Part shown: piece after piece, positions 16,759 through 53,495 of the stretch | Layout: every line of letters begins with the position of its first letter | Position numbering within the stretch: the stretch's first letter is position 1 | Source of the DNA: Escherichia coli | GTDB taxonomy: Bacteria; Pseudomonadota; Gammaproteobacteria; Enterobacterales; Enterobacteriaceae | NCBI RefSeq assembly: GCF_044324875.1 | Contig: NZ_CP172185.1 | Length of the DNA: 64,000 nucleotides | Reading direction: 5' to 3' (one strand) | The notes under the pieces: model-generated | Database searches by the model: none | What the model was told of the DNA's origin: nothing | The model's input: only the letters and a program-made list of their open reading frames with translations | Made by a program: the position numbers and the translations under genes

Positions 16759-16858
16759 CTGATGCGCTACGCTTATCAGGCCTACACGTATCCTGCAATA
16801 TATTGAATTCGCAGGTTTTTGTAGGCCGGATAAGGCGTTCACGCCGCATCCGGCATGA
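16759..16858. repeat. REP/BIME cluster (two REP units in opposite orientation)
   Basis: gcctgatgcgctacgcttatcaggcctac and gtaggccggataaggcgttcacgccgcatccggca. Confidence 0.8.
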
Positions 16859-30989: not shown

Positions 30990-31140
30990 ACGATGGCAGG
31001 GCAGCATGGTGCTGTAACGGTAAAGCCCTCACCGAAGCGAGGGCTTGAAGGAGAAGGGTTATGATGCGACTTGTCATCATACTGATTGTACTGTTACTCA
31101 TAAGTTTCCCAGCTTATTAACAGTCAGTCTCAGGGGAGGA
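30990..31140 (-). ncRNA. sibC: SibC antisense sRNA (antitoxin of ibsC); boundaries approximate
   Basis: Expected from the position between serA and ygfA and the presence of the ibsC ORF on the opposite strand; ends not determined from sequence. Confidence 0.4.
31061..31120 (+). CDS. ibsC: Type I toxin IbsC (19-aa hydrophobic peptide)
   Basis: ATGATGCGACTTGTCATC... encodes MMRLVIILIVLLLISFPAY; followed by a gggaggaGTCATcctccc hairpin. Confidence 0.8.
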   Translation: MMRLVIILIVLLLISFPAY

Positions 31141-31220
31141 GTCATCCTCCCTTACCCTTACTCACTAAATTAGGTTAAAGAATCAACGATGTCAATCAGG
31201 GCGATGCAGGTGTGTCGCCC

Positions 31221-31843: not shown

Positions 31844-32027
31844 GGAATCTCCGAGATGCCGCCGCAGGCTGTAACCCTTGAACCCTTGGTTCAAGGTGAA
31901 TGTGTCGTCGCAGTTTTAAGGCTTCTCGGACGGACCGAGCATGCTCACCAACCGCGGAGCGCCACATTCTTGTGGTATGAAATATCGGCTCAGGGGACTG
32001 GCCCGCTTGCGAACATCTCAGAGAAAT
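31844..32027 (-). ncRNA. ssrS: 6S RNA
   Basis: Reverse complement matches 6S RNA (5'-ATTTCTCTGAGATGTTCGCAAGCGGGCCAGTCCCCTGAGCC...GGAGATTCC-3'); immediately upstream of fau as in the ssrS-ygfA operon. Confidence 0.9.
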
Positions 32028-44624: not shown

Positions 44625-44800
44625 TGTGCATTAGTAGGCCTGATAAGACGCGTCAGCGTCGCATCAGGCATCGGATCGCAACTGCCGGATGCGGCGTGAA
44701 CGCCTTATCCGGCCTACGGGCCGCGTCCTTGGTGTGATAAAGGCACCAAATCCCAGGCATGATAAGACGCGTCAACGTCGCATCAGGCAATAGTCGCCGG
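44625..44800. repeat. BIME cluster (three to four REP units)
   Basis: Repeated gcctgataagacgcgtca(g/a)cgtcgcatcaggc and gccggatgcggcgtgaacgccttatccggcctac units. Confidence 0.85.
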
Positions 44801-49001: not shown

Positions 49002-50735
49002 GTGAAACAACAGATACAACTTCGTCGCCGTGAAGTCGATGAAACGGCAGACTTGCCCGCTGAATTGCCTCCCTTGCTGCGCCGTTTATACGCCAGCCGG
49101 GGAGTACGCAGTGCGCAAGAACTGGAACGCAGTGTTAAAGGTATGTTGCCCTGGCAGCAACTGAGCGGCGTCGAAAAGGCCGTTGAGATCCTTTACAACG
49201 CTTTTCGCGAAGGAACGCGGATTATTGTGGTCGGTGATTTCGACGCCGACGGCGCGACCAGCACGGCTCTAAGCGTGCTGGCGATGCGCTCGCTTGGTTG
49301 CAGCAATATCGACTACCTGGTACCAAACCGTTTCGAAGACGGTTACGGCTTAAGCCCGGAAGTGGTCGATCAGGCTCATGCCCGTGGCGCGCAGTTAATT
49401 GTCACGGTGGATAACGGTATTTCCTCCCATGCGGGGGTTGAACACGCTCGTTCGTTGGGCATTCCGGTTATTGTTACCGATCACCATTTGCCAGGCGACA
49501 CATTACCCGCAGCGGAAGCGATCATTAACCCTAACTTGCGCGACTGTAATTTCCCGTCGAAATCACTGGCAGGCGTGGGTGTGGCGTTTTATCTGATGCT
49601 GGCGCTGCGCACCTTTTTGCGCGATCAGGGCTGGTTTGATGAGCGCGGCATCGCAATTCCTAATCTGGCAGAACTGCTGGATCTGGTCGCGCTGGGGACA
49701 GTAGCGGACGTCGTGCCGCTGGACGCTAATAATCGCATTCTGACCTGGCAGGGGATGAGTCGCATCCGTGCCGGAAAGTGCCGTCCGGGGATTAAAGCGC
49801 TGCTGGAAGTGGCCAATCGCGATCCACAAAAACTCGCCGCCAGCGATTTAGGTTTTGCGCTGGGGCCACGTCTCAATGCTGCCGGGCGACTGGACGATAT
49901 GTCCGTTGGCGTGGCGCTGTTGCTGTGCGACAACATCGGCGAAGCGCGCGTGCTGGCAAATGAACTCGATGCGCTAAACCAGACGCGAAAAGAGATCGAA
50001 CAGGGAATGCAAGTTGAAGCCCTGACCTTGTGCGAGAAACTGGAGCGCAGCCGCGACACGCTACCCGGCGGGCTGGCAATGTATCACCCCGAATGGCATC
50101 AGGGCGTTGTCGGTATTCTGGCTTCGCGCATCAAAGAGCGTTTTCATCGTCCGGTTATCGCCTTTGCGCCAGCAGGTGATGGTACGCTGAAAGGTTCCGG
50201 TCGCTCCATTCAGGGGCTGCATATGCGTGATGCGCTGGAGCGATTAGACACACTCTACCCCGGCATGATGCTCAAGTTTGGCGGTCATGCGATGGCGGCG
50301 GGTTTGTCGCTGGAAGAGGATAAATTCGAACTCTTTCAACAACGGTTTGGCGAACTGGTTACTGAGTGGCTGGACCCTTCGCTATTGCAAGGCGAAGTGG
50401 TGTCGGACGGTCCGTTAAGTCCGGCCGAAATGACCATGGAAGTGGCGCAGCTGTTGCGCGATGCTGGCCCGTGGGGGCAGATGTTCCCGGAGCCGCTGTT
50501 TGACGGTCATTTCCGTCTGCTGCAACAGCGACTGGTGGGCGAACGTCATTTGAAGGTGATGGTCGAGCCGGTCGGCGGCGGTCCGCTGCTGGATGGTATT
50601 GCTTTTAATGTCGATACCGCCCTCTGGCCGGATAACGGCGTGCGCGAAGTGCAACTGGCTTACAAGCTCGATATCAACGAGTTTCGCGGCAACCGCAGCC
50701 TGCAAATTATCATCGACAATATCTGGCCAATTTAG
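49002..50735 (+). CDS. recJ: Single-stranded-DNA-specific exonuclease RecJ
   Basis: 577 aa; GTG start; DHH/DHHA1 motifs. Confidence 0.95.
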   Translation: MKQQIQLRRREVDETADLPAELPPLLRRLYASRGVRSAQELERSVKGMLPWQQLSGVEKAVEILYNAFREGTRIIVVGDFDADGATSTALSVLAMRSLGCSNIDYLVPNRFEDGYGLSPEVVDQAHARGAQLIVTVDNGISSHAGVEHARSLGIPVIVTDHHLPGDTLPAAEAIINPNLRDCNFPSKSLAGVGVAFYLMLALRTFLRDQGWFDERGIAIPNLAELLDLVALGTVADVVPLDANNRILTWQGMSRIRAGKCRPGIKALLEVANRDPQKLAASDLGFALGPRLNAAGRLDDMSVGVALLLCDNIGEARVLANELDALNQTRKEIEQGMQVEALTLCEKLERSRDTLPGGLAMYHPEWHQGVVGILASRIKERFHRPVIAFAPAGDGTLKGSGRSIQGLHMRDALERLDTLYPGMMLKFGGHAMAAGLSLEEDKFELFQQRFGELVTEWLDPSLLQGEVVSDGPLSPAEMTMEVAQLLRDAGPWGQMFPEPLFDGHFRLLQQRLVGERHLKVMVEPVGGGPLLDGIAFNVDTALWPDNGVREVQLAYKLDINEFRGNRSLQIIIDNIWPI

Positions 50736-50825
50736 CGTCATCTTCTCTATAAAAAAGAGCGTGGATTGGGTACAATCCCGCTCTTATCACCGCATTTTGA
50801 CTAGCTCAATAAAAGAAATCAGACC

Positions 50826-51924
50826 ATGTTTGAAATTAATCCGGTAAATAATCGCATTCAGGACCTCACGGAACGCTCCGACGTTCTTAGGGGGTATCTT
50901 TGACTATGACGCCAAGAAAGAGCGTCTGGAAGAAGTAAACGCCGAGCTGGAACAGCCGGATGTCTGGAACGAACCTGAACGCGCACAGGCGCTGGGTAAA
51001 GAGCGTTCCTCCCTCGAAGCCGTTGTCGACACCCTTGACCAAATGAAACAGGGGCTGGAAGATGTTTTTGGTCTGCTGGAACTGGCTGTAGAAGCTGACG
51101 ACGAAGAAACCTTTAACGAAGCCGTTGCTGAACTCGACGCTCTGGAAGAAAAACTGGCGCAGCTTGAGTTCCGCCGTATGTTCTCTGGCGAATATGACAG
51201 CGCCGACTGCTACCTCGATATTCAGGCGGGGTCTGGCGGTACGGAAGCACAGGACTGGGCGAGCATGCTTGAGCGTATGTATCTGCGCTGGGCAGAATCG
51301 CGTGGTTTCAAAACTGAAATCATCGAAGAGTCGGAAGGTGAAGTGGCGGGTATTAAATCCGTGACGATCAAAATCTCCGGCGATTACGCTTACGGCTGGC
51401 TGCGTACAGAAACTGGCGTTCACCGCCTGGTGCGTAAGAGCCCGTTTGACTCCGGCGGTCGTCGCCACACGTCGTTCAGCTCCGCGTTTGTTTACCCGGA
51501 AGTTGATGACGATATCGATATCGAAATCAATCCGGCGGATCTGCGCATCGACGTTTATCGCGCGTCCGGCGCGGGCGGTCAGCACGTTAACCGTACCGAA
51601 TCTGCGGTGCGTATTACTCACATCCCAACTGGGATCGTGACCCAGTGCCAGAACGACCGTTCCCAGCACAAGAACAAAGACCAGGCCATGAAGCAGATGA
51701 AAGCGAAGCTTTATGAACTGGAGATGCAGAAGAAAAATGCCGAGAAGCAGGCGATGGAAGATAACAAATCCGACATCGGCTGGGGCAGCCAGATTCGTTC
51801 TTATGTCCTTGATGACTCCCGCATTAAAGATCTGCGTACCGGGGTAGAAACCCGTAACACGCAGGCCGTGCTGGACGGCAGCCTGGATCAATTTATCGAA
51901 GCAAGTTTGAAAGCAGGGTTATGA
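50826..51924 (+). CDS. prfB: Peptide chain release factor 2, requiring a programmed +1 frameshift
   Basis: Frame 0 runs 50826–50900 ([25 protein letters not shown]), then CTT TGA C at 50898–50904; the +1 frame continues 50902–51924 ([12 protein letters not shown]...SPGQ motif...KAGL); AGGGGG Shine-Dalgarno-like element just upstream of the shift site. Confidence 0.95.
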
Positions 51925-51933
51925 GGAACCAAC

Positions 51934-53451
51934 ATGTCTGAACAACACGCACAGGGCGCTGACGCGGTAGTCGATCTTAACAATGAACTGAAAACGCGTC
52001 GTGAGAAGCTGGCGAACCTGCGCGAGCAGGGGATTGCCTTCCCGAACGATTTCCGTCGCGATCATACCTCTGACCAATTGCACGCAGAATTCGACGGTAA
52101 AGAGAACGAAGAACTGGAAGCGCTGAACATCGAAGTCGCCGTTGCTGGCCGCATGATGACCCGCCGTATTATGGGTAAAGCGTCTTTCGTTACCCTGCAG
52201 GATGTGGGTGGCCGCATTCAGCTGTACGTTGCCCGTGACGATCTGCCGGAAGGCGTTTACAACGAGCAGTTCAAAAAATGGGACCTCGGCGACATCCTCG
52301 GCGCGAAAGGTAAACTGTTCAAAACCAAAACCGGCGAACTGTCTATCCACTGCACCGAGCTGCGTCTGCTGACCAAAGCACTGCGTCCGCTGCCGGACAA
52401 ATTCCACGGCTTGCAGGATCAGGAAGCGCGCTATCGTCAGCGTTATCTGGATCTCATCTCTAACGATGAATCCCGCAACACCTTTAAAGTGCGCTCGCAG
52501 ATCCTCTCTGGTATTCGCCAGTTCATGGTGAACCGCGGCTTTATGGAAGTTGAAACGCCGATGATGCAGGTGATCCCAGGCGGTGCCGCTGCGCGTCCGT
52601 TTATCACCCACCATAATGCGCTGGATCTCGACATGTACCTGCGTATCGCGCCGGAACTGTACCTCAAGCGTCTGGTGGTCGGTGGCTTCGAGCGTGTATT
52701 CGAAATCAACCGTAACTTCCGTAACGAAGGTATTTCCGTACGTCATAACCCAGAGTTCACCATGATGGAACTCTATATGGCTTACGCAGATTACAAAGAT
52801 CTTATCGAGCTGACCGAATCGCTGTTCCGTACTCTGGCACAGGATATTCTCGGTAAGACGGAAGTGACCTACGGCGACGTAACGCTGGACTTCGGTAAGC
52901 CGTTCGAAAAACTGACCATGCGTGAAGCGATCAAGAAATATCGCCCGGAAACCGACATGGCAGATCTGGACAACTTCGACTCTGCGAAAGCGATTGCTGA
53001 ATCTATCGGTATCCACGTTGAGAAGAGCTGGGGTCTGGGCCGTATCGTTACCGAGATCTTCGAAGAAGTGGCAGAAGCACATCTGATTCAGCCGACCTTC
53101 ATTACTGAATATCCGGCAGAAGTTTCTCCGCTGGCGCGTCGTAACGACGTTAACCCGGAAATCACTGACCGCTTTGAGTTCTTTATCGGTGGTCGTGAAA
53201 TCGGTAACGGCTTTAGCGAGCTGAATGACGCGGAAGATCAGGCGCAGCGCTTCCTGGATCAGGTTGCCGCGAAAGACGCAGGCGACGACGAAGCGATGTT
53301 CTACGACGAAGATTACGTCACCGCACTGGAACATGGCTTACCGCCGACAGCAGGTCTGGGAATTGGTATCGACCGTATGGTAATGCTGTTCACCAACAGC
53401 CATACCATCCGCGACGTTATTCTGTTCCCGGCGATGCGTCCGGTGAAATAA
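51934..53451 (+). CDS. lysS: Lysine--tRNA ligase (constitutive)
   Basis: 505 aa starting [44 protein letters not shown]. Confidence 0.97.
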
Positions 53452-53471
53452 GCATTACGTTATGCTCACAA

Positions 53472-53495
53472 CCCCGGCAAATGTCGGGGTTTTTT
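53472..53495 (+). terminator. lysS intrinsic terminator (shared with convergent idi)
   Basis: ccccggcaaatgtcgggg hairpin followed by a T6 tract. Confidence 0.7.

Follow-up and report, generated by a model that had tools for sequence, protein, structure and literature searches.

The +1 programmed frameshift site of prfB in an Escherichia coli genome: anatomy, conservation and rival explanations

The prfB gene of Escherichia coli, which encodes release factor 2 (RF2), is broken into two reading frames in the DNA described here, and the question raised by the locus is whether ribosomes are programmed to cross that break or whether the break has another origin. Two separate ORFs, 50826–50903 and 51043–51924, were listed for the gene in the window (the whole stretch of DNA that was analysed, 64 kb, to which the motif, pairing and neighbour scans refer). 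The first-pass annotation had pointed out that ORF finders split the gene in this way and had read the break as the classical autoregulatory RF2 frameshift site, known and intact in this strain. That reading was upheld: positions 50826–51924 were identified as E. coli prfB with the classical autoregulatory +1 programmed ribosomal frameshift site, with a probability of about 98%.

Anatomy of the site and the protein read across it

The ATG at 50826 opens an ORF of 25 codons that ends at an in-frame TGA (50901–50903), and a second stop follows two codons further on in the same frame. The frame-0 segment (codons 1–25, 50826–50900, + strand) matches residues 1–25 of the solved E. coli RF2 exactly. 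A continuous single-frame prfB ORF, named beforehand as the finding that would speak against a frameshift site, was not present, since frame 0 stops at 50901–50903. The cassette AGGGGGTATCTTTGAC occupies 50889–50904 and reads AGGGGG-TAT-CTT-TGA-C; the motif had been quoted correctly in the first-pass annotation with a start at 50890, and the true start lies one base to the left. On the + strand it begins with an internal Shine-Dalgarno-like AGGGGG (50889–50894, Arg22-Gly23), placed 3 nt 5′ of the CUU shift codon, and continues with the 3-nt spacer TAT (50895–50897), which encodes Tyr24 and would be the E-site codon when the shift occurs (role of the spacing according to PMC12421855). The slippery CTT T (50898–50901) follows, made up of the Leu25 codon CUU and the U of UGA, at the L25-D26 junction. 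The in-frame TGA (50901–50903, + strand) is codon 26 in both the ORF list and the translation; it is an RF2-specific stop and the putative sensor of the RF2 level. The C behind it (50904, + strand) completes UGA-C, a weak termination context according to PMC12421855, and is at the same time the third base of GAC (Asp26). From the GAC at 50902 the frame is open for 340 codons, up to the TGA at 51922–51924, and the +1-frame segment (codons 26–365 and the stop, as established by translation and alignment) thus covers 50902–51924 of the + strand. The in-frame UGA after codon 25 in the context CUU UGA C and the Shine-Dalgarno-like element upstream of it were therefore both found as had been claimed, and every sequence-level element that defines the classical site is in place.

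The 16-mer occurred only once in the 64 kb window, even when 2 mismatches were allowed, and was matched in none of 100 dinucleotide-preserving shuffles; a chance occurrence of the site was rejected on these grounds. The bare heptamer CTTTGAC was found 11 times in the window against 8.1 expected, which is chance frequency, so that the signal resides in the combination of the elements and in their position in prfB. For the Shine-Dalgarno-like element, pairing with the 3′ tail of 16S rRNA was predicted at −10.2 to −10.7 kcal/mol for the 9-mers over AGGGGG, about 4 sd lower than the mean 9-mer pairing energy of prfB (−1.9 kcal/mol, sd 2.1), and at −12.6 kcal/mol for a 21-mer duplex. The best 9-mer of prfB, GGAAGGUGA, lies elsewhere (51333–51341, −10.9 kcal/mol), with neither a slippery site nor a stop adjoining it, and its value was reached by 69 of the roughly 64,000 + strand 9-mers of the window. 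Because an equally strong anti-Shine-Dalgarno match is thus present within the same gene, the Shine-Dalgarno-like element is not diagnostic when taken alone. A scan of the whole window with Rfam models at gathering thresholds returned nothing at prfB; this says little about a site that is a short linear motif, and we know of no stimulatory RNA structure described for it. The Rfam matches elsewhere in the window were 6S/SsrS RNA (31844–32027, − strand), SIB RNA, an antitoxin sRNA (31045–31195, − strand), naRNA4 (44637–44714, matched on both strands) and ES036 sRNA (16778–16820, − strand). No tRNA genes were found in the window with ARAGORN.

Translation of 50826–50900 joined to 50902–51921 gave a protein of 365 amino acids. 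This protein matched the NCBIfam model TIGR00020 (prfB) over residues 12–362 with 524.5 bits (cutoff 370), and its scores with RF1 models stayed under the cutoffs of those models. It aligned from residue 1–365 to 1–365 with E. coli RF2 sequences in the PDB (1gqe, 1ml5 and many ribosome complexes; E ~4e-240), and the alignment to the solved RF2 across L25-D26 (…RGYL-DYDAK…) was ungapped and identical. The junction that had been proposed for such an alignment (50826–50900 and 50902–51924) thus proved exactly right. The stop-recognition tripeptide SPF (residues 205–207, 51439–51447) and the catalytic motif GGQ (residues 250–252, 51574–51582) were both present; each is invariant or nearly so among 100 homologs. 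As Leu25 is directly followed by Asp26, the reading must pass over just one base, T 50901. A shift of −2 was considered as well and was rejected, because it would add a residue (Leu-Phe-Asp), and no such residue stands between Leu25 and Asp26 in the solved protein.

The +1 frame opens at 50848, and its first ATG, GTG or TTG is that at 51043 (codon 73); none of the three was present in this frame between 50848 and 51042. Residues 26–72 can therefore be reached only via a frameshift. RefSeq gives prfB as a CDS in two pieces, marked 'programmed frameshift', for strain 118UI (99.9% identity to the window over 1,301 bases), K-12 MG1655 and O157:H7 PV15-279. The gene accordingly needs a joined CDS (50826..50900, 50902..51924) in any annotation; where it is left unjoined, gene callers give a 25-codon ORF and a truncated 'RF2' of 293 amino acids. 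On 97 public contigs, the 293-aa product of the ORF 51043–51924 is entered as a called 'peptide chain release factor 2'. These entries are gene-caller truncations, and prfB is often mis-called.

Conservation, exceptional records and rival explanations

Of 5,426 complete E. coli genomes, 5,425 contain prfB, each in a single copy. A 30-mer comprising the cassette and the 12 bases upstream of it was 100% identical in 5,416 of the 5,426 (counted in identity bands, not as a per-genome list), and the site is essentially invariant in complete E. coli genomes. About 7 complete genomes, besides those of strains SS17 and SS52, contain prfB and lack the exact 30-mer. Just behind the cassette, position 50907 is polymorphic for T and C, a synonymous difference at the last base of Tyr27, the second codon after the shift, and the 60-mer in its T version, as found in the window, is common to 997 genomes.

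Across species, a pattern scan for the exact 16-mer with one genome per species gave matches in the genomes of at least 120 other species, which belong, among the matches listed, to the Gamma-, Beta- and Deltaproteobacteria, Bacteroidia, Nitrospirae and Rickettsiales. In 115 of 120 loci among these listed matches, an RF2 homolog continued in the +1 frame after the 16-mer (phmmer E 1e-12 to 1e-225), and in almost all of the 115 the frame-0 ORF before it comprised 20–27 codons from a candidate start and ended in …RGYL. The downstream sequence was too short for the test in 4 of the 120 listed loci, the 3 readable ones of which keep the same N-terminus, and 1 was a chance match (locus L044). All these loci were picked by the exact 16-mer, so that conservation of the motif holds by construction; the independent evidence consists in its position in prfB and in the RF2 continuation behind it. 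Prince, Lin and Feaga (mBio 2025; PMC12421855) surveyed 12,753 genomes, of which 64% carried the prfB frameshift motif, and give its consensus as AGGGGG, a 3-nt spacer, CTTT, TGA and C.

The first-pass annotation had also proposed a comparison with strains that carry a frameshift-less prfB allele. Such an allele turned out to be essentially absent from E. coli, with 2 of 5,426 records. CTTGAC, with one T missing, and a continuous prfB CDS of 1,098 bases were found only in O157:H7 strains SS17 (NZ_CP008805.1, positions 1159–2256 of extracted locus L003) and SS52 (NZ_CP010304.1, positions 1149–2246 of extracted locus L126) among the 5,426 complete genomes. Both records come from one laboratory, and the two strains group with O157 isolates of lineage I/II (PMC5552260). 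SS52 was sequenced by Ion Torrent, assembled with guidance by a reference and curated manually (PMC4395050), and for this reason an artefact is the likeliest origin of the fused gene. The fusion in SS17 and SS52 is thus probably an assembly artefact, and a real natural loss of autoregulation was considered unlikely. 'Frameshift-less' prfB in E. coli is thereby confined to two probably erroneous records. A different kind of exception was seen in NIPH17_0036 (NZ_AP024561.1, positions 401–1470 of extracted locus L002), where prfB is annotated as a pseudogene with an internal stop and a missing C-terminus; the match is 26 bases shorter than the gene in the window, and the frameshift site is intact.

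These records bear on the suspicion that the break in the reading frame arose from an error in sequencing or assembly, or that it is a genuine inactivating mutation which has left a pseudogene. Assemblies commonly gain or lose a single base in short homopolymers, the SS17 and SS52 records deviate at the site by just one T, and the prfB of NIPH17_0036 is called a pseudogene, all of which would suit such an origin. The two frames and the identical 30-mer recur, however, in 5,416 of 5,426 complete genomes, the same architecture is found in 115 loci of other species among the matches listed, and the break lies exactly at the canonical cassette, which RefSeq calls programmed; if anything, it is the one-frame records that are odd. 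As far as sequence comparison can tell, error and pseudogene are effectively refuted by the conservation data, and their probability was put close to nil. Much the same negligible weight was given to two independent genes, that is, a small ORF of 25 codons and a separately initiated, N-terminally truncated RF2. Such an arrangement would fit the report of 50826–50903 and 51043–51924 as separate ORFs and the 293-aa product on 97 contigs in public collections, but residues 26–72, which lie upstream of 51043 in the +1 frame and are identical to the solved RF2, are encoded without any ATG, GTG or TTG, and the TIGR00020 match (residues 12–362) spans both the junction and the start at 51043.

A frame restored in the RNA, where RNA polymerase would slip on TTT and make an mRNA with one U less, was weighed in the same manner. 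There are bacterial genes in which transcriptional slippage restores the frame, and a run of T is present at the break. This run consists of 3 T only, whereas the homopolymers known to support transcriptional slippage are far longer, and slippage would leave no role for a Shine-Dalgarno-like element at a fixed spacing of 3 nt, for the RF2-specific UGA or for the C next to it. The literature moreover assigns the event to the ribosome and describes it as responsive to release-factor status (PMC12421855, PMC5373646). Transcriptional slippage at the prfB site is implausible and was credited with hardly any probability. At the level of the sequence, nothing contradicts the reading of the locus as a programmed ribosomal frameshift site of prfB.

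Residues 81 and 246 of RF2 and the transcription unit

Two residues of the encoded RF2 differ from those of K-12. Residue 246 is Ala (GCG, 51562–51564), as it is in one PDB sequence, and Thr in K-12 (chain 1ml5_Z compared). Thr246 has been linked to the weaker termination of the K-12 RF2, and residue 246 is presumably the one in which the RF2 alleles of E. coli B and K-12 differ; the RF2 of this strain is of the more active type, with Ala246. Termination at UGA is reported to be better with the E. coli B allele than with K-12 RF2, and frameshifting slightly lower (PMC5373646). Residue 81 is Phe (TTT, 51067–51069, with the T at 51068) and is Ser (TCT) in the closest genome and in the solved RF2. 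The T at 51068 was sought in 5,425 RefSeq complete E. coli genomes and was found in none; 101 public contigs nevertheless encode exactly this 365-residue protein with Phe81, and RF2 homologs are hypervariable at position 81. On account of these contigs and of the variability of the position, the change from Ser81 to Phe was not put down to an error or to engineering. Phe81 is a minor allele of natural origin and has no evident consequence, and it was thought improbable that it shifts RF2 activity and the set-point of frameshifting. Neither Phe81 nor the fusion in SS17 and SS52 changes the identity of the flagged site.

The gene order recJ-prfB-lysS-idi is the same as in annotated E. coli genomes. 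recJ (49002–50735, + strand; assigned by ORF, profile match and gene order) is the upstream neighbour, and lysS (lysine--tRNA ligase, 51934–53451, + strand; ORF and profile match) starts 9 nt after the prfB stop. A consensus scan returned no terminator-like site between prfB and lysS, which makes their co-transcription likely. The GC-rich hairpin with a T-run found 3′ of lysS (53470–53491, + strand), terminator-like by consensus match only, is the probable end of a prfB-lysS transcription unit. In the gap between recJ and prfB (50736–50825), a simple consensus scan gave no sigma-70 promoter; the sole sigma-70 match of the scan was situated inside prfB (51194–51222), and such matches were at or below the chance rate. 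Further downstream, the window and its closest relative over prfB, strain 118UI, which differ by about a dozen SNPs over the 6.4 kb before ~54160, lose register from ~54160 onward (yqfH/yqfG region, downstream of idi), which indicates an indel there.

Mechanism and comparison with known systems

According to the literature and to work on other E. coli strains, translation of prfB would take the following course. Ribosomes would start at the ATG at 50826, read 25 codons and arrive at the site with peptidyl-tRNA-Leu on CUU (50898–50900) in the P site and UGA (50901–50903) in the A site, a codon that is read by RF2 only and that the next C turns into a weak stop. When RF2 is abundant, termination would occur and a peptide of 25 residues would be released. 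When RF2 is scarce, the ribosome would pause at UGA-C, AGGGGG (50889–50894) would pair with the anti-Shine-Dalgarno tail of 16S rRNA, and tRNA-Leu would slip one base forward from CUU to UUU (50899–50901); GAC (50902–50904) would then enter the A site, and translation in the +1 frame would yield the 365-residue RF2. RF2 would in this way limit its own synthesis in a negative feedback loop. The mechanism of frameshifting in E. coli prfB is summarised in PMC12421855. At the native E. coli locus, ribosome profiling put the frameshifting efficiency at ~28% in K-12, at ~21% when the RF2 allele is that of E. coli B, and at ~47% in K-12 lacking RF3 (PMC5373646). As had been noted in the first-pass annotation, this is a known feature, both in RefSeq annotation and in the literature (PMC12421855, PMC5373646). 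It is in fact known in every respect, and the intact site found here adds nothing new to it; prfB is the standard textbook example of recoding by which a gene product controls its own synthesis.

The closest known system is the +1 programmed frameshift site of E. coli K-12 prfB, which was reportedly described together with the autoregulation of RF2 by Craigen and Caskey in 1986 (cited in PMC5373646 and PMC12421855). The first 81 nt of the K-12 gene, including the cassette, are identical to the window, and UGA as codon 26, the length of 365 amino acids and the recJ-prfB-lysS context are the same. The K-12 gene differs from that of the window in the synonymous T/C at 50907 (Tyr27) and encodes Thr246 and Ser81 where the window encodes Ala246 and Phe81. 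When compared with the consensus of the bacterial prfB motif (PMC12421855), the window matched at every element, with no difference at the level of the motif. Frameshift-less prfB, which occurs naturally in Actinomycetota and Mycoplasmatota, is the same gene for the same protein, but it has a single frame and contains neither the Shine-Dalgarno-like nor the slippery element (PMC12421855); the window is not of this kind. Nor is it of the other frameshift-less kind, which results from engineered or evolved single-base deletions; in Pseudomonas limited for RF2, experiments have selected for deletions of a single base that fuse prfB (bioRxiv 10.64898/2026.01.08.698412). E. coli dnaX (−1) and pheL (+1) resemble prfB in that the ribosome changes frame at a slippery sequence. 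In dnaX frameshifting, an internal Shine-Dalgarno-like stimulator is used as well. What sets prfB apart from dnaX and pheL, and is specific to it, is the direction of the shift, its slippery sequence, the need for a stop codon and the logic of autoregulation.
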